Below are positions 2,433-35,669 of a stretch of 64,000 nucleotides of DNA, piece by piece; position 1 is the stretch's first letter, and each line of letters opens with the position of its first letter. Where the stretch lies: the sequence record MZ234018.1; one strand, 5' to 3'. The notes beneath the pieces are model-generated. The model worked only from the letters and a program-made list of their open reading frames with translations, was not told where the DNA came from and did not search any database. A program made the translations under genes and the position numbers. The DNA comes from Escherichia phage vB_EcoM-101117BS1.

Positions 2433-3320
2433 ATGTCAGTAGTAATTAATAATGTCAATGCAGTAATTAAATCTTTAGTTAATAAAAAATTGAATGAATG
2501 GACTGTACTTCGTCGTGGAGAGCCAGATAAATTTTTTCATAGATTTAACCCAACTTTGGATTTGAATGTTATTGACAGAGATGTTCATGCAGAAATTTTA
2601 GATAAGTTTAAAGTTGATATTGGATTTGGATTAGAAAAACATTTGCAGCGAACAAACGGGTCTGGAATGGGTTTATCTAATCGCATTATGAAAGCCCTTA
2701 ATAAAATTGGAGCATTGTCTCGTATTAACGCGAGTGAAATCCTTCATAATTATAATAAAGGATATGACCTTTATGGTCGACTAATGCCGAAATTATCATT
2801 TGACCAAATGATCGCAGATTTGTGGGAAAATCAACGACGATTATTAGCATTAGGCGCTCGATTAGCTAAAGGTCTAGATAAACAAATGATTTTTAAGACC
2901 AATAATACAGAAGACCTTAAATGCTTTAAATTTAGTATTCGCGGCGATGATTATTACGTCAGAGCTCGCTCTACAGATTATGTTAATATGGGGCATCATC
3001 TCTGTTTAGCTTTTGAAGTTTTAAAAGAAGCCGGAACATTAGAATATGTGTCTGGTGCTAAATGCCCGATTGGTTCAAGTTGTATTTTAATTTATCGCCC
3101 GGATGAATCCAGTTCATCTAAATTACCTACAAAACCTGTACCAGTTCGTAGTAACGAAAAACATTCTGAGCAAATTGATTATTTTAATAAGCAAATTGAA
3201 GAGCTGAATATTTCTATTCAACAGTATGACGATGAAATTTTCAGACTATCTGGATTGAGTAGTAAAGCTAAATCTGAGCGTGAAAAATTAATTAAAATTG
3301 TTGATTTACTTAAATCTTAA
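2433..3320 (+). CDS. hypothetical protein with C-terminal coiled-coil-like tail
   Basis: ATG at 2433 after GAGGAAAA SD (track start 2412 is TTG); C-terminal K/E-rich heptad-like segment. Confidence 0.55.
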   Translation: MSVVINNVNAVIKSLVNKKLNEWTVLRRGEPDKFFHRFNPTLDLNVIDRDVHAEILDKFKVDIGFGLEKHLQRTNGSGMGLSNRIMKALNKIGALSRINASEILHNYNKGYDLYGRLMPKLSFDQMIADLWENQRRLLALGARLAKGLDKQMIFKTNNTEDLKCFKFSIRGDDYYVRARSTDYVNMGHHLCLAFEVLKEAGTLEYVSGAKCPIGSSCILIYRPDESSSSKLPTKPVPVRSNEKHSEQIDYFNKQIEELNISIQQYDDEIFRLSGLSSKAKSEREKLIKIVDLLKS

Positions 3321-3328
3321 GGAACACT

Positions 3329-4333
3329 ATGAAAACTCGTTCTCAAATTGAAGATATGGTTCGTAATGCCAGCTATACCCGTAATGTTATGACATTTTTG
3401 TGCCAAAATAATTTAGACCCTGATAGAGTTAATAGTTCCATTCACTTTAAGTATATGAATAGCAGTGAATGGTTACGTCATTTTAGTAAAGCGGGATATA
3501 TTACACAAATGACTGCTCGTGAGCAGCTCACCGATTTCTGTAAAACTATTGATTATAAAAATCCTCTATTTGTTCAAGGCGTTGGTCAGAGTAAGGTCGA
3601 TTTATCAACAGGATTTTTTAATCCAAATCATTATCGTATTGAATGGAGATTTATTGCTCTATTTCGTAAACAATTAAAGCAAATTTTGTCTACTGCTAGT
3701 CGATTAAAAGGCTCTGATATTAACTTAAAGAATCTGAAATTTGATGGTTATACTCTTCAGATGGAAGTAAGACCATTAAAAGAAAATAATAGAACTGCAC
3801 GAATTAGCTTTAAACCTAATACAAAAAATTCTCTTTCAATTTGTGAATGTCTTAAATCACAGTTGACAGAAGCATTTAAGTATATGGATGTTGTTGCTGC
3901 TGTTCAATCTAAGATTTCGCAGCATTTCGAACGATTTAAATTAGATACGACAACATATGAACTTGATATGATCGTTTCATTTAAATATGATTTTTTGAGA
4001 AAGGACGAAGTTACACAAGAGAAAAAACCTGAACCCCAAACTAATTACTCATCAAACGATCCTAAATTTTGGATGTATAGTTCAGATAATAATGATGCAT
4101 GGAAATTTAATAAAGTGAATTTTCTTCCTGTTGAAAATCCGAGTCTTAAACCTGTTGAAAAATGGCACGCTGACGCGATTGAGAAGTCTATCAAGGCAGT
4201 AGATGATGAACTCGTTAAAGCAACTAATGAAGTGTTAGAAGCTGAAAAGATGCTAGAAAAAGCTCAAGAAAAAGTAAAAAATCTCACGAAGCAACGTTCT
4301 AAATTGAACAACGCACTAAATGCACTAAACTAG
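3329..4333 (+). CDS. hypothetical protein with C-terminal coiled-coil-like tail
   Basis: 334-aa ORF; C-terminus KATNEVLEAEKMLEKAQEKVKNLTKQ. Confidence 0.55.
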   Translation: MKTRSQIEDMVRNASYTRNVMTFLCQNNLDPDRVNSSIHFKYMNSSEWLRHFSKAGYITQMTAREQLTDFCKTIDYKNPLFVQGVGQSKVDLSTGFFNPNHYRIEWRFIALFRKQLKQILSTASRLKGSDINLKNLKFDGYTLQMEVRPLKENNRTARISFKPNTKNSLSICECLKSQLTEAFKYMDVVAAVQSKISQHFERFKLDTTTYELDMIVSFKYDFLRKDEVTQEKKPEPQTNYSSNDPKFWMYSSDNNDAWKFNKVNFLPVENPSLKPVEKWHADAIEKSIKAVDDELVKATNEVLEAEKMLEKAQEKVKNLTKQRSKLNNALNALN

Positions 4334-4362
4334 TTTACTTCGCCACAAGGATGTGGTATAAT
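4333..4362 (+). promoter_or_regulatory. T4-type early promoter
   Basis: GTTTAC 4333-4338, 18-bp spacer, TGGTATAAT with TATAAT 4357-4362. Confidence 0.6.
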
Positions 4363-4390
4363 GTTCTTACTTTCTACTGAGGAGATTAAT

Positions 4391-5392
4391 ATGACTCGCA
4401 ACGAATATATTAAATCGTTCAACAGCGTTATTGATGATAAAGCTATACCGATGTTTGGTCAAAATATCGTTCTTTCTATTATCAATCAATGGCTCAATAG
4501 TGTTGATGCAAGTATTGTTTCTTCTACTAAATTTATTCATGAAATTCGTAAAATTTCTAGCCGTGTAGATAAAGATGACATTAAGAAAACCTTTAAAGGG
4601 TCTCGTCTTCTTTCATACTTAGTCAACAGAGATATTCTTAGTAAATTTGGGAAAGAAATTAAACGAACTAAAGATGTAGTAGGATATAATTGGTTCGGTG
4701 ATGTTAATTCTTATCATCTTAATAATAAAGAAGACCCTGAGAATATTTTTACTCGTCGTTGGATTAGTAATTTCAGACTTTTCAAAGGACAAATTCTAAA
4801 ATCAGCTTCTAAATTATGTTATGGCGATTATCGTCAAATTCATCCTTTGGCTTCTGATATGATTATCGTAAAAGAATATGAGCTTGATGAAAATAAAGTA
4901 GCTATTTTTGTGAATTATGGATTTTTTACACCAAACGCTAACCAAAAGAATATTAATAAATTTTTCTCAATTGCTAGCACTATAACTCGTCAGTTAGAGA
5001 CTGCATTACTTTGTATGGAAACAGTAGAAAATATTCATACATATCCTTTTAAGAATATATGCGGATGGGAAGGATATAAAATTGTAATTAGTCTTCGTGA
5101 AGTGAAATGTGCTTATTCACCTACTGATAAAGAAATTTATCAACAAAAATGTGAGGAAATTGTGAATACTCCTAAAGAAGAAACTACCCTTGAGGAACTA
5201 ATGGATAATCTTGATGATTCGCCTGAACCGGCAGAAATTCGTCCAGAAGTTATTGCATTAGAAAAAGCTTATAAAGAAGTTCTAGAAATTTCTAATAAAG
5301 CACAGAAAGAATATGAGCAGGCTAAAAGGATTTGGGAAGAATCTGTCAATCGTCTTGATCGTCTTGAACAAGCTTTACAGTTAATTAAGTAA
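4391..5392 (+). CDS. hypothetical protein with C-terminal coiled-coil-like tail
   Basis: ATG 4391 after GAGGAG SD; C-terminus EKAYKEVLEISNKAQKEYEQAKRIWEESVNRLDRLEQALQ. Confidence 0.55.
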   Translation: MTRNEYIKSFNSVIDDKAIPMFGQNIVLSIINQWLNSVDASIVSSTKFIHEIRKISSRVDKDDIKKTFKGSRLLSYLVNRDILSKFGKEIKRTKDVVGYNWFGDVNSYHLNNKEDPENIFTRRWISNFRLFKGQILKSASKLCYGDYRQIHPLASDMIIVKEYELDENKVAIFVNYGFFTPNANQKNINKFFSIASTITRQLETALLCMETVENIHTYPFKNICGWEGYKIVISLREVKCAYSPTDKEIYQQKCEEIVNTPKEETTLEELMDNLDDSPEPAEIRPEVIALEKAYKEVLEISNKAQKEYEQAKRIWEESVNRLDRLEQALQLIK

Positions 5393-18525: not shown

Positions 18526-20204
18526 AGAATTTTAAACTAAACCGAGTTAGGTATCAAAATATAATGTCAGTAGGTGGAAATCCTATTGACATTCAATTAG
18601 ATAAGGTTCAAAAAACTCTTATTACTGGACGAAATGGCGGTGGTAAGTCTACTATGTTAGAAGCCATCACATTTGGGCTTTTTGGCAAGCCATTTCGTGA
18701 TGTAAAGAAAGGTCAATTAATAAACAGCACAAATAAGAAAGAACTTTTAGTTGAACTGTGGATGGAATATGATGAGAAAAAGTATTATATCAAAAGAGGA
18801 CAAAAACCAAACGTTTTCGAAATCACCGTTAACGGTACACGTCTTAATGAATCTGCCAGCAGTAAAGATTTCCAAGCAGAATTTGAACAGCTTATCGGAA
18901 TGTCATATGCCAGTTTCAAGCAGATTGTTGTCCTTGGTACAGCAGGGTATACCCCTTTCATGGGTTTGTCGACCCCTGCACGAAGAAAGCTTGTGGAAGA
19001 CCTGCTTGAGGTAGGAACATTAGCTGAAATGGATAAGCTTAATAAAGCGCTAATACGTGAATTAAATTCACAAAACCAAGTGCTTGATGTTAAAAAAGAT
19101 AGTATTATCCAACAAATTAAAATATATAATGATAACGTTGAACGCCAGAAAAAATTAACGGGTGACAACCTTACTCGTCTACAAAATATGTATGATGATT
19201 TGGCAAAAGAAGCTAGAACGCTAAAATCGGAAATAGAAGAAGCTAATGAAAGATTAGTTAATATTGTTTTGGATGAAGACCCGACTGATGCATTTAATAA
19301 AATCGGTCAAGAAGCAGTTTTAATTAAATCAAAAATTGACTCGTATAATAAAGTCATTAATATGTATCACGAAGGTGGATTATGTCCAACCTGCTTGTCA
19401 CAATTAAGTTCCGGTGATAAAGTTGTTTCTAAAATTAAAGATAAAGTTTCTGAATGTACGCATTCGTTTGAGCAGCTTTCAACGCATCGTGATAATTTAA
19501 AAGTTCTTGTTGATGAATACCGAGATAATATTAAAACCCAACAGTCGTTGGCAAATGATATTCGCAATAAAAAGCAATCTCTAATCACGACGGTAGATAA
19601 AGCTAAAAAAGTTAAAGCGGCTATAGAAAAAGCATCTTCTGAGTTTATTGACCATGCTGATGAAATAGCATTGCTTCAAGAAGAACTTGATAAAATTGTT
19701 AAGACAAAAACTAATTTAGTAATGGAAAAATACCACCGAGGAATTTTGACTGATATGCTCAAAGATTCTGGTATTAAAGGTGCTATTATTAAAAAGTACA
19801 TTCCATTATTTAATAAGCAGATTAACCATTATCTTAAAATAATGGAAGCGGATTATGTGTTTACATTAGATGAAGAATTTAATGAGACAATTAAATCCCG
19901 TGGTCGTGAAGATTTTAGTTATGCTTCATTCAGTCAAGGTGAAAAAGCACGAATTGATATTGCTCTTTTATTTACTTGGCGTGATATTGCTGAAAAAGTT
20001 TCAGGTGTTAAAATAAACACGTTAATTCTTGACGAAGTTTTTGATTCAGCGACCGATGTTGAAGGTGTAAAAGCTATTTCAACTATTTTAGATAGTTTAA
20101 AAAATACTAATGTTTTTGTTATTTCGCATAGAGACCATGACCCACAAGCATATGGTCAGCACCTTCAAATGAAGAAAGTTGGTCGATTTACTGTAATGGT
20201 TTAA
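18522..20204 (+). CDS. 46: recombination ATPase subunit gp46 (Rad50-like)
   Basis: 560 aa; P-loop GRNGGGKST, CPTC zinc hook, C-terminal signature and D-loop; GTG start. Confidence 0.9.
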   Translation: MKNFKLNRVRYQNIMSVGGNPIDIQLDKVQKTLITGRNGGGKSTMLEAITFGLFGKPFRDVKKGQLINSTNKKELLVELWMEYDEKKYYIKRGQKPNVFEITVNGTRLNESASSKDFQAEFEQLIGMSYASFKQIVVLGTAGYTPFMGLSTPARRKLVEDLLEVGTLAEMDKLNKALIRELNSQNQVLDVKKDSIIQQIKIYNDNVERQKKLTGDNLTRLQNMYDDLAKEARTLKSEIEEANERLVNIVLDEDPTDAFNKIGQEAVLIKSKIDSYNKVINMYHEGGLCPTCLSQLSSGDKVVSKIKDKVSECTHSFEQLSTHRDNLKVLVDEYRDNIKTQQSLANDIRNKKQSLITTVDKAKKVKAAIEKASSEFIDHADEIALLQEELDKIVKTKTNLVMEKYHRGILTDMLKDSGIKGAIIKKYIPLFNKQINHYLKIMEADYVFTLDEEFNETIKSRGREDFSYASFSQGEKARIDIALLFTWRDIAEKVSGVKINTLILDEVFDSATDVEGVKAISTILDSLKNTNVFVISHRDHDPQAYGQHLQMKKVGRFTVMV

Positions 20205-32952: not shown

Positions 32953-33246
32953 ATGAAAAAATTTATTTTTGCTACAATTTTTACTTTGGCTTCTTGTGCT
33001 GCTCAGCCTGCTATGGCAGGATATGATAAAGATTTGTGTGAATGGTCTATGACTGCAGATCAGACTGAAGTTGAAACTCAAATTGAAGCGGATATTATGA
33101 ATATCGTTGAGCGCGATCGTCCTGAAATGAAAGCTGAAGTGCAAAAACAACTTAAGTCTGGTGGTGTAATGCAGTATAATTATGTTCTGTATTGCGATAA
33201 AAACTTTAATAACAAAAATATCGTAACCGAAATCACAGGCGAATAA
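32953..33246 (+). CDS. sp: Spackle (Sp), periplasmic superinfection-exclusion protein
   Basis: 97 aa with cleavable signal peptide ending AQPAMA; matches T4 Sp. Confidence 0.75.
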   Translation: MKKFIFATIFTLASCAAQPAMAGYDKDLCEWSMTADQTEVETQIEADIMNIVERDRPEMKAEVQKQLKSGGVMQYNYVLYCDKNFNNKNIVTEITGE

Positions 33247-33247
33247 T

Positions 33248-33880
33248 ATGATTTATTATATGCACAAAAATCCACCGTTTAAATACGGTAAATTTCCTGA
33301 TGCACAATGTTATAATATAACGCCTGATGAAAATAACCGTGGATATCTTATTGGCACAATTTTTGTAATTGTTAAAGATAACGAAATCGTTGCCTGGGCA
33401 GATTTTAAAGGTACAACATATGATGTTAATCCGGTGCCTTTCACATATTACAATTTAATGGATTTGGCATACGATTATAATTGGTTTAATCATGACACTT
33501 TGGCTCATATTGAAGGTGTAGGATTTGATATTTCATATTCGGAATACACTTTAAGCCCTATGAGTCGAGCCCATAAAGAACCTGAATATTTTTCATTTAG
33601 GAAACGTGTAAACTTTAAACGCAGCACAGAGTATGTCGGTGGAATCTTTGTTAAAGATAATCGAATTATTCGTATTAATTATCCTTTGAGCGTTAGTCAA
33701 AAAGATATTGATGTTGATTTAGATTTCACTGAAAATAATATTAATAATATTGCTTCTGTGTATTTTGGTATCGATCACAAAATTGTAATATGTGGATATG
33801 AATTACCGTTTGAAGAACAGCCTAAAGTAAAAGTTTCTATTGACGATCAAATTTTTAATGCTTTTATGAATAAAGGTTAA
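33248..33880 (+). CDS. hypothetical protein at the T4 61.2 position (possible AdfA-like)
   Basis: 210-aa ORF; C-terminal tail IDDQIFNAFMNKG is shared with the next ORF. Confidence 0.45.
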   Translation: MIYYMHKNPPFKYGKFPDAQCYNITPDENNRGYLIGTIFVIVKDNEIVAWADFKGTTYDVNPVPFTYYNLMDLAYDYNWFNHDTLAHIEGVGFDISYSEYTLSPMSRAHKEPEYFSFRKRVNFKRSTEYVGGIFVKDNRIIRINYPLSVSQKDIDVDLDFTENNINNIASVYFGIDHKIVICGYELPFEEQPKVKVSIDDQIFNAFMNKG

Positions 33881-33884
33881 TATG
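33836..33884 (+). repeat. 49-bp direct repeat, copy A (3' end of ORF plus junction to next start)
   Basis: tctattgacgatcaaatttttaatgcttttatgaataaaggttaatatg; 3 mismatches to copy B. Confidence 0.8.
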
Positions 33885-34238
33885 TATAGTTCTGAATTTT
33901 CATATTTAAAAATGGAAAAAATTTCATACGATTTTATAGATGAAAAGGTTTATTACAGTTTCCATGAACCGCGTTTTAATAGTGAGGTTGGGTTTATTGT
34001 AGTAAAAGACAATTTCATTTTAAAGATATATTCGGCATTAAAGGATTTTCACTACGAAAATATTAACCTAAAATTTGATAAAGAAAACGTTCGTAATTGT
34101 GCAGTAACAATTACAGGAAATAAAGGTACATGTGTTATGCTATCTGATGAAATTAATGATTTGCTAAATGATGCAGAAAATATTACTGCGCCATCTATTG
34201 ATGACCAAATTTTTAATGCTTTTATGAATAGAGGTTAA
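33882..34238 (+). CDS. hypothetical protein
   Basis: 118-aa ORF ending IDDQIFNAFMNRG. Confidence 0.45.
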   Translation: MYSSEFSYLKMEKISYDFIDEKVYYSFHEPRFNSEVGFIVVKDNFILKIYSALKDFHYENINLKFDKENVRNCAVTITGNKGTCVMLSDEINDLLNDAENITAPSIDDQIFNAFMNRG

Positions 34239-34242
34239 TATG
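34194..34242 (+). repeat. 49-bp direct repeat, copy B
   Basis: tctattgatgaccaaatttttaatgcttttatgaatagaggttaatatg. Confidence 0.8.
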
Positions 34243-34404
34243 AAAACATATAAAGAATTTATTAAAGAAGATATGGTCGCTGGAGATTCAGGTGGTAATC
34301 CTGAAAATATCTCTACTGGAACAACATCAGGTGCTGTAGTAAATAAAGGTCCTGAACAGATTCCTAAAAAGAAAAAAGAGGAATCTAAAGAAAAAGAAGA
34401 GTAA
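34240..34404 (+). CDS. hypothetical small Lys/Glu-rich protein
   Basis: 54-aa ORF filling the gap to gene 61. Confidence 0.35.
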   Translation: MKTYKEFIKEDMVAGDSGGNPENISTGTTSGAVVNKGPEQIPKKKKEESKEKEE

Positions 34405-34406
34405 AA

Positions 34407-35435
34407 ATGTCATCAATACCTTGGATTGATAATGAGTTTGCGTATCGTGCATTGGCTCATTTACCTAAATTCACACAAGTAAATAATAGTTCAACTTTTA
34501 AATTGCGGTTTAGATGTCCTGTTTGTGGAGATTCAAAAACCGACCAGAATAAAGCTCGTGGATGGTATTATGGTGATAATAATGAAGGAAATATTCATTG
34601 TTATAACTGTAATTATCATGCACCAATCGGAATATATTTAAAGGAGTTTGAACCTGATTTATATCGTGAGTATATCTTTGAAATAAGAAAAGAAAAAGGT
34701 AAAAGTCGTCCAGTAGAAAAACCTAAAGAACTTCCTAAGCAACCTGAGAAGAAAATAATTAAATCTCTTCCGTCATGTGTTAGATTAGATAAACTGGCGG
34801 AAGACCATCCAATTATAAAATATGTAAAAGCTCGTTGTATTCCAAAGGATAAATGGAAATATCTTTGGTTTACAACCGAATGGCCTAAATTAGTTAATAG
34901 CATAGCACCGGGAACATACAAAAAGGAAATTTCTGAGCCTCGTCTTGTTATTCCAATTTATAATGCTAATGGAAAAGCTGAGTCTTTTCAAGGACGTGCA
35001 TTAAAGAAAGATGCTCCTCAAAAATATATCACCATTAAAGCTTATCCTGAGGCAACAAAAATTTACGGTGTTGAACGAGTTAAAGATGGTGATGTATATG
35101 TTCTAGAAGGACCTATAGATTCACTTTTTATTGAAAATGGTATAGCTATTACAGGTGGTCAATTAGACCTAGAAGTTGTTCCATTTAAAGATAGACGAGT
35201 GTGGGTTTTAGATAATGAACCTCGTCACCCTGACACTATCAAACGAATGACTAAATTAGTTGATGCTGGAGAAAGGGTTATGTTTTGGGATAAATCTCCC
35301 TGGAAATCAAAAGATGTCAATGATATGATTAGAAAGGAAGGTGCAACCCCTGAACAAATTATGGAATATATGAAAAATAATATTGCCCAGGGGTTGATGG
35401 CTAAAATGCGGCTATCTAAATATGCTAAGATTTAA
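34407..35435 (+). CDS. 61: DNA primase gp61
   Basis: 342 aa; N-terminal zinc ribbon CPVCGDS...CYNC and TOPRIM domain. Confidence 0.95.
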   Translation: MSSIPWIDNEFAYRALAHLPKFTQVNNSSTFKLRFRCPVCGDSKTDQNKARGWYYGDNNEGNIHCYNCNYHAPIGIYLKEFEPDLYREYIFEIRKEKGKSRPVEKPKELPKQPEKKIIKSLPSCVRLDKLAEDHPIIKYVKARCIPKDKWKYLWFTTEWPKLVNSIAPGTYKKEISEPRLVIPIYNANGKAESFQGRALKKDAPQKYITIKAYPEATKIYGVERVKDGDVYVLEGPIDSLFIENGIAITGGQLDLEVVPFKDRRVWVLDNEPRHPDTIKRMTKLVDAGERVMFWDKSPWKSKDVNDMIRKEGATPEQIMEYMKNNIAQGLMAKMRLSKYAKI

Positions 35436-35632
35436 ATCAACCCAACTAAAGCAAATGCTAAATCTACAAATGTATCAAGAGTAACTACTGGAATATTAAT
35501 ACCATGCGCAATTGCAACAGGTGATAGAATAAAGTTCCAGAGTAAAATTCCTACCATAGCAGAAATAGTAAAAGCTATACGTTTTTTATTACCTTTTATG
35601 GCATTAACAAGTGCCATTAATTTTTGTACCAT
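35432..35632 (-). CDS. small membrane protein encoded antisense to the early-gene block
   Basis: 66 aa with two hydrophobic segments; AAGGAGG SD 4 nt upstream of ATG on the - strand. Confidence 0.4.
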   Translation of the reverse strand: MVQKLMALVNAIKGNKKRIAFTISAMVGILLWNFILSPVAIAHGINIPVVTLDTFVDLAFALVGLI

Positions 35633-35645
35633 ATGTCCTCCTTAT

Positions 35646-35669
35646 TGCTTTATATATTTATTGTATAAT
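35646..35669 (+). promoter_or_regulatory. MotA-dependent middle promoter candidate upstream of gene 56
   Basis: TGCTTTA 35646-35652, 11-bp spacer, TATAAT 35664-35669. Confidence 0.5.

Follow-up and report, generated by a model that had tools for sequence, protein, structure and literature searches.

What keeps an island of nearly identical DNA at the ends of two adjacent and otherwise diverged genes? The question is raised by a 64,000-nucleotide (nt) stretch of Escherichia phage vB_EcoM-101117BS1 (record MZ234018.1), referred to throughout as the window and numbered from its first letter, in which the gene adfA (T4 gene 61.2, anti-DarT factor A) and the gene directly downstream of it, RB32ORF033c (hereafter ORF033c), close with two copies of one 49-nt direct repeat. 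The original prediction for this locus had offered two explanations, a conserved recombination junction that allows cassettes to be exchanged while translational coupling is preserved, or a partial duplication. The explanation we favor, to which we assign a probability of roughly 80%, is that adfA and ORF033c are tandem paralogues of the AdfA family, that their shared tail is at once a conserved peptide, the middle promoter P61 and a ribosome-binding site, and that the repeat is a natural crossover point.

A repeat search returned a single 49-nt direct repeat at this locus, with identity at 46 of 49 positions and a start-to-start spacing of 358 nt (coordinates in Table 1). When copy 1 was used as a query against the 64-kb window with up to three mismatches allowed, the two sites were the only ones found, and 100 dinucleotide-preserving shuffles yielded no match at all. 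Both the near-identity with three mismatches at the ends of the two open reading frames (ORFs) and the content of the repeat are therefore as first described: each copy holds the last 14 codons of its gene, encoding SIDDQIFNAFMN[K/R]G, followed by a TAA stop codon, a single T and the ATG of the next gene, with 42 of the 49 nt being coding. The three differences between the copies are GAC GAT versus GAT GAC, both of which encode Asp-Asp, and AAA (Lys) versus AGA (Arg).

The same 49 bp coincide with a promoter that has been mapped in T4, a point missed by the original prediction. Middle promoter P61, with its start site at T4 position 19122, is listed in Table 1 of Hinton 2010 (PMC2988021), which cites Marshall, Sharma and Hinton 1999 for the mapping. 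The T4 junction between 61.2 and 61.1, which spans -58 to -10 of P61, is identical to copy 2 of the window at 49 of 49 positions. In T4, positions -35 to -26 of P61 (TTAATGCTTT) fall within tail codons, the 12-13-nt spacer contains the GAGG Shine-Dalgarno site, and positions -12 to -7 (TAATAT) consist of the 61.2 stop codon TAA, the intervening T and the AT of the 61.1 ATG. Measured against the middle-promoter consensus (wwwTGCTTtA, 12 ± 1 nt, TAtaaT), the MotA box TAATGCTTTT agrees at nine of ten positions in both copies, and in both copies TAATAT after a 12-nt spacer satisfies the sigma-70 pattern TAnnnT at 12 ± 1 bp; the three differences of copy 1 spare the MotA box and the -10 hexamer. 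Both copies also match TGCTTN{13,15}TANNNT, which has 30 occurrences in the window where 14.9 would be expected, and the GenBank record of phage Lutter carries 27-nt "promoter" features on both junctions.

By identity to T4, P61 of the window would start at 34248, and since this position lies past the ATG of 61.1, the predicted transcript would serve the primase gene 61. Copy 1 is a predicted second MotA-type middle promoter, with a start expected near 33888-33890. A general sigma-70 promoter and terminator scan returned nothing at the junctions, with counts near the shuffle expectation. Compared with T4 P61, copy 2 shares the MotA box, the spacer, the -10 hexamer and a predicted start within 61.1; it differs in that the window promoter sits within the 3' end of ORF033c and not of adfA, and in having a near-identical copy 358 bp upstream. 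The DksA RNA-seq paper makes no mention of P61, and in the literature searched we found no description of its overlap with a conserved peptide or of its duplication. A conserved peptide and a mapped middle promoter thus share one 49-bp stretch with a ribosome-binding site and with both a stop and a start codon, and it is because the promoter, the conserved peptide and the ribosome-binding site overlap there that the stretch is near-invariant. This overlap accounts for what would otherwise be a puzzling island of DNA identity between two diverged genes.

Table 1. Positions in the window of the two repeat copies, the signals within them and the surrounding genes.
Feature	Position	Strand	Remarks
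sp (spackle)	32953..33246	+	Pfam T4_Spackle, E = 6e-45; RB51 annotation; left neighbour of the variable slot
adfA (T4 gene 61.2, anti-DarT factor A), 210 aa	33248..33880	+	Pfam PF23813 AdfA, E = 3e-139
Repeat copy 1	33836..33884	+	Last 14 codons of adfA (SIDDQIFNAFMNKG), TAA, T, ORF033c ATG
MotA-box-like sequence of copy 1, TTAATGCTTT	33855..33864	+	Identical to T4 P61 -35..-26
-10-like TAATAT of copy 1	33878..33883	+	adfA stop, T, AT of ORF033c start
RB32ORF033c, 118 aa	33882..34238	+	Ends in SIDDQIFNAFMNRG; Pfam AdfA, 31.9 bits; PHROG phrog_4122
Repeat copy 2	34194..34242	+	Last 14 codons of ORF033c, stop, 61.1 ATG; 49/49 with T4 61.2/61.1 junction
MotA box of P61, TTAATGCTTT	34213..34222	+	-35..-26, placed from T4 start 19122; in Phe-Asn-Ala-Phe codons
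Shine-Dalgarno GAGG for 61.1	34231..34234	+	In Arg-Gly codons AGA GGT; weaker in copy 1 (AAGG)
-10 hexamer TAATAT of P61	34236..34241	+	ORF033c stop, T, AT of 61.1 start
Gene 61.1, 54 aa	34240..34404	+	Predicted P61 transcript begins 3' of its ATG
Gene 61 (DNA primase)	34407..35435	+	Predicted to be served by P61

Outside the repeat the two proteins had been taken to be unrelated, a view contradicted by homology searches. BLASTP aligned AdfA with ORF033c at 37% identity over 106 aa (E = 6e-11), and ORF033c matched Pfam PF23813 above the gathering cutoff of 27 (31.9 bits, E = 1.1e-7) at model positions 113-211 only. The PHROGs of the two proteins match each other, the RB51 record comments on ORF033c as "similar to gp61.2", and one GenBank record labels 61.2 "anti-DarT factor A". 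With the 14-aa tail removed, ORF033c was paired by hhalign with the C-terminal half of AdfA at P = 4.8e-4 to 6e-4, with a probability of only 28-32%, and a profile-profile comparison with the N-terminal half gave P of about 1e-3 to 3e-3.

Predicted structures agree with this relationship, although the tail-less evidence as a whole is weak. The AlphaFold2 model of ORF033c (predicted local distance difference test score, pLDDT, 83.7) consists of five strands, a helix, a strand and a helix, followed by a low-confidence linker (residues 102-105) and a low-confidence terminal helix (106-115). The 118-aa protein is thus modelled as a single beta5-alpha-beta-alpha domain plus a tail helix, without the two-domain layout of about 210 aa of AdfA, whose weaker model (pLDDT 68) contains two beta5-alpha units and a terminal helix at 198-207. 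A Foldseek search of the ORF033c model against viral models (BFVD) matched a 118-aa orthologue, an unnamed and uncharacterized 212-aa entry of AdfA size (30% identity, E = 2e-4, template modelling score 0.51) and an unnamed and uncharacterized 145-aa entry (E = 1e-3), the size of the 145-aa gene type described below; beyond these entries the search gave no other significant match. On the BLASTP and Pfam matches, the PHROG cross-match, the tail-less profiles and the AlphaFold2 and Foldseek comparisons, ORF033c is an old single-domain paralogue of the C-terminal half of AdfA, and AdfA itself is the product of an internal duplication. No literature on ORF033c or on an adfA paralogue was found. 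The upstream gene of the pair encodes AdfA itself (T4 gp61.2; PF23813), the subject of LeRoux-lab work (PMC11257639). ORF033c resembles AdfA in matching the C-terminal half of the model, in occupying the same slot after sp and in carrying the same tail; it differs in having one domain rather than two and in an amino-acid identity of at most about 30% outside the tail (versus 94% nucleotide identity within it).

How old this paralogy is bears directly on the second explanation offered at the outset. In a recent local partial duplication, ORF033c would have arisen in this lineage from the 3' part of adfA, and the tail alone would have escaped divergence, a history suggested by the tandem head-to-tail layout and by the alignment of ORF033c with the C-terminal half of AdfA. 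The low identity outside the tail (about 25-30% of residues) speaks against it, as does the saturation of synonymous sites there (8 of 26 identical codons); units of a recent tandem duplication are alike along their whole length, whereas here the likeness is confined to the tail. T2-type phages carry ORF033c without adfA, and orthologues of the short gene at 45-49% identity are present in other genera, beside a different tail-bearing gene. These cross-genus orthologues show that the paralogy is old and rule out a recent local event, to which we give next to no credence; a partial duplication stands in a deep, old sense.

The remaining explanation, a recombination junction, predicts that genes are gained and lost at the repeat. 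Loci were compared across annotated phage records, IMG/VR, metagenomes and protein-cluster look-ups, and this is what was found across T4-like genomes. Between sp and 61.1, T4 has adfA alone (~207 records), the window and RB51 have adfA and ORF033c (~157 records), T2 has ORF033c alone (~141 records), and RPN226 has neither gene (~24 records); these counts come from junction-specific searches and are rough, the records being redundant. The blastn blocks between T4 and the window stop at 33884 and resume at 34194, that is, at the edges of the repeat, and the 358-bp ORF033c indel is bounded exactly by it. In the metagenome locus L051, a T4-type adfA allele is followed by ORF033c, the repeat copies differ at one base, and T4 equals L051 minus exactly the DNA between the repeats. 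In other genera, a short-type gene flanked by tails is what separates locus L019 from L020. Four different genes are found downstream of this tail junction across genera (61.1, the short gene, a 73-aa gene resembling 61.4, and a gene of 63-65 aa), and the stop-N-start junction is retained in all arrangements.

The codons of the tail themselves record these exchanges, in that the synonymous Asp variants track the upstream gene and the last two codons track the downstream gene: GAGGT precedes 61.1, and AAAGGT or AGAGAT precedes the short gene. A strict rule that Lys AAA always precedes ORF033c was broken by the locus L059, which has Arg-Asp (AGA GAT), and the rule was therefore recast: what precedes the short gene is a weakened Shine-Dalgarno site. 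With this one refinement (Arg-Gly before 61.1, Lys-Gly or Arg-Asp before ORF033c), the last two codons predicted the neighbours in four further contigs. As a separate observation, junctions upstream of the short gene always have a weakened Shine-Dalgarno site, which reads AAAGGT or AGAGAT within Tequatrovirus and CGAGAT outside it (window 33872-33877 versus 34230-34235; L059 2089-2137; L006, L019, L021), and those upstream of 61.1 and other genes keep GAGGT; lower translation of the short gene may be selected. Additionally, both tail-bearing genes are missing in only about 5% of Tequatrovirus records (odds ratio 0.13, from rough and redundant counts), which hints that at least one tail-bearing gene, or the P61 MotA box within it, is retained by selection.

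We propose that the overlapping peptide, promoter and translation signals would keep the 49 bp almost invariant while the gene bodies have diverged to about 25-37% amino-acid identity, and that under highly active phage homologous recombination the copies 358 bp apart would act as crossover points. Crossovers within or between genomes could then delete, insert or swap the genes between junctions, which would yield the four natural arrangements and keep the copies alike; recombination, rather than selection alone, probably maintains their likeness. The classical threshold for efficient T4 homologous recombination is reportedly about 50 bp, a figure said to go back to Singer et al. 1982. The island in which the repeat lies is the one studied by Srikant et al. 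2022, who found T4 to recombine at 6-10 bp microhomologies in dmd-tifA-adfA (PMC9391042). The two cases are alike in the island concerned and in amplification or deletion through short direct repeats, and differ in that theirs were laboratory events at chance microhomologies of 6-10 bp, whereas those described here are natural polymorphisms at a conserved functional sequence of 49 bp.

A recombination junction need not be a dedicated one. A dedicated mobile cassette would be recognized by a specific recombinase or by a homing endonuclease, or would be a mini-circle-forming regulatory cassette of the PeSL/PmSL type, these being the promoter cassettes through which modules are shuffled in T4-like phages (Arbiol et al. 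2010; Comeau et al. 2014; PMC2839356, PMC4122927). The resemblance to PeSLs is real: the repeat places a short repeated promoter, Shine-Dalgarno site and start codon (in the order MotA box, GAGG or AAGG, TAATAT, ATG) at the edges of indels and replacements that distinguish close relatives (T4, L051, T2, RPN226, L019/L020), and PeSL/PmSL cassettes are likewise proposed to act via homologous recombination. The window repeat differs in having neither a stem-loop (RNA folding z-scores at the junctions of +0.74 and -1.41) nor a terminator-like site, in carrying a middle-mode (MotA) rather than an early sigma-70 promoter, in being coding and overlapping the upstream stop codon instead of lying between genes, and in being restricted to a single locus and gene family (two sites within the 64 kb of the window, and this locus only in public collections) rather than dispersed through hyperplastic regions. 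Between sp and gene 61 the only genes are adfA, ORF033c and 61.1, and no nuclease or recombinase domain is present in that interval. We regard a dedicated cassette as very improbable. That the repeat serves as a recombination junction is a side effect of tandem paralogy and of general phage recombination; it is no dedicated exchange site, and general homologous recombination on a 49-bp repeat suffices, so no dedicated mechanism is needed. Of the original idea of an exchange junction, then, the repeat-bounded indels and the preserved stop-N-start coupling stand, and a purpose-built mechanism, of which there is no sign, does not.

The conserved peptide is not limited to these two genes. The sequence [S/D/A][I/V]DDQIFNAFM[N/K][K/R][G/D] ends three gene types, each immediately following sp: AdfA (208-216 aa), the short type (116-125 aa) and a type of 143-148 aa (PHROG phrog_8539), and every tail gene extracted from metagenome loci was one of these three. 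DDQIFNAFM is an amphipathic, invariant C-terminal helix common to the family, and it may dock onto a partner protein. In the 145-aa type, the hairpin motif YVGFIMVQNNKIISV corresponds to AdfA YVGGIFVKDNRIIRI; its tail-less homology had P of about 0.1 with the first small alignments and reached ~1e-3 only after divergent members were added, and for this reason we keep it as weak support. A degenerate 27-nt tail pattern gave 16 matches in IMG/VR, located on the T4-like contigs that carry the sp loci, and 12 in metagenomes, with none in 185,579 bacterial and archaeal genomes. This leaves no lead towards host mimicry or a dispersed element.

Such a widespread peptide raises the question of whether protein constraint is enough. 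In that case, the 49-bp identity would be the remnant of an old tandem duplication, kept by selection on the helix together with T4-type codon bias, and its overlap with the promoter and the indels would be incidental. The peptide is indeed invariant in three gene types and several genera despite synonymous differences and spoiled -10 hexamers, and codon bias alone predicts 6.5 of 12 identical codons. The DNA is nevertheless more alike than this would require. Of the informative tail codons, 10 of 12 are identical between the window copies versus the 6.5 expected from window codon usage (P = 0.03), and identical residues elsewhere in the pair share their codon in 8 of 26 cases (Fisher P = 0.003 versus the tail). 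Within Tequatrovirus, paralogue tails are more alike (0-3 differences per 49 nt) than orthologue tails between genera (5-9 differences), the tail Arg codon, AGA in both Tequatrovirus types, is CGA in every other genus, and the tails of T4 adfA and ORF033c are identical at 49 of 49 positions where both precede 61.1. P61 has, moreover, been experimentally mapped at this very site in T4. We consider protein constraint on its own unlikely.

Several points weigh against the combination of paralogy, promoter and crossover point that we prefer. The homology outside the tail is weak, with hhalign probabilities of 10-32%, and the mapping of promoter activity comes from T4 alone. Some other genera use a TGA stop codon, which turns the hexamer into TGATAT and removes the critical A of the -10 while the peptide stays invariant; protein constraint is therefore strong by itself, and the promoter may be secondary outside Tequatrovirus. 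The excess of codon identity is modest (P = 0.03), and strong codon bias leaves 9 of 12 codons identical even between genera, so that part of the DNA identity can be explained without promoter constraint or gene conversion. The database behind the arrangement counts is redundant, and its records are phylogenetically non-independent. Finally, the sp junction of the T2 and RPN226 types, TTAGAGGTTA[G/A]T, is off by 3-4 nt from a simple microhomology deletion.

That deletion, between TGAATA at the end of sp and in the tail, had been tried as the origin of the T2 and RPN226 spacer and was rejected, the predicted junction being 3-4 nt too short. A 14-nt core, TAGAGGTTAATATG, is found nowhere else in the window and forms the spacer between sp and the next gene in T2 and RPN226. 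The last ~24 nt of sp are of an RB32/window type that differs from the T4/T2 type, with a blastn block edge at window position 33222. Together with this sp end (33222-33246), the first ~170 nt of adfA (33248-33420) have diverged from T4, T2 and L051 beyond blastn detection, and the rest is 89-97% identical to them. The AdfA protein of the window is also nearer to the RB69 type (81%) than to T4 (73%). The diverged 5' part and the RB69-type affinity point to a second mosaic breakpoint inside adfA.

The phage of the window is a Tequatrovirus of the RB32/RB51 type, and over the 2-kb region it shares 98-100% identity with many Tequatrovirus genomes, with matches in 664 phage records. The RB51 and T4 records give the order 41, dmd, 61.4, sp, 61.2, RB32ORF033c, 61.1, 61, with the anti-toxin island lying between the helicase gene (41) and the primase gene (61); dmd-tifA(61.4)-adfA was termed an anti-toxin-antitoxin (anti-TA) island by Srikant et al. 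2022 (PMC9391042). Downstream, a 66-aa ORF on the minus strand, RB32ORF030w (35432-35632), overlaps the end of gene 61 by 4 nt, has a membrane or holin-family annotation in other records and occupies the position of T4 dam. A strong MotA-type match, TGCTTTATATATTTATTGTATAAT, lies at 35646-35669 upstream of gene 56 and probably corresponds to T4 P56/69.

Elsewhere in the family, the neighbours of the tail-bearing genes vary. In the RB69-like loci L017 and L018 (about 2700-3167 and 4165-4632), a 155-aa protein (phrog_2086) has the 54-aa 61.1 sequence as its C-terminus, and the 63-65-aa gene follows the AdfA tail. In the Dhakavirus-like and Gaprivervirus-like loci (L011-L016, L019-L021), the tail-bearing genes are followed by a 73-aa paralogue of 61.4 (TifA, anti-ToxN factor), the second such gene in the same island.

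Variation is also seen within AdfA itself. AdfA binds DarT1 when residue 164 is His, and the R164H site of RB69 AdfA, in the C-terminal half, governs this binding (PMC11257639). At the equivalent site the window has Asn (adfA codon 167, 33746-33748), whereas RB51 and T4 have His; Asn is thus a third variant of the specificity residue, beside His (binding) and Arg (non-binding) (PMC11257639). The two halves of the adfA gene of the window also each hold one arm of a perfect inverted repeat of 15 nt (CACATATTACAATTT at 33442-33456 and AAATTGTAATATGTG at 33780-33794). In phage Elenatom (L005, 1868-2490), a frameshift splits adfA into ORFs of 98 and 64 aa with the tail and junction kept, and this copy looks like a pseudogene in the making. 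T2, which has been called naturally adfA-less in the same work that found T4 with adfA deleted to be still resistant (PMC11257639), carries a short AdfA-family paralogue right after sp (L004, 2501-2857), with 97.5% identity to ORF033c of the window.

A further reading, which goes beyond tandem paralogy and which we put forward tentatively as possible but rather doubtful, is that of a plug-in system, in which the tail helix would be a common docking peptide, the junction of promoter and ribosome site would be the "socket", and specificity domains would be swapped through recombination at the socket, with ORF033c acting as a second inhibitor, directed at a DarT-like or other toxin. If this were true, swaps between the two-domain AdfA, the ORF033c type and the 145-aa type would leave the contact with the partner, primase transcription and coupling to the downstream gene unchanged. 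ORF033c as an inhibitor would then help to explain the DarTG resistance of T2 and of T4 with adfA deleted, and a plug-in arrangement would help to explain why so few Tequatrovirus records (about 5%) lack both genes.

For the biology of T4-like phages, the repeat marks the exact points at which genes enter and leave the dmd-tifA-adfA anti-toxin island, and it extends the idea of promoter-cassette shuffling to a case that is coding and middle-mode. As the P61 MotA box is lost where both genes are absent and present twice where both occur, gain or loss of adfA and ORF033c should alter middle-mode transcription of the primase gene. ORF033c, present in about 300 phage records including T2, is a candidate for the unexplained DarTG resistance of T-even phages.

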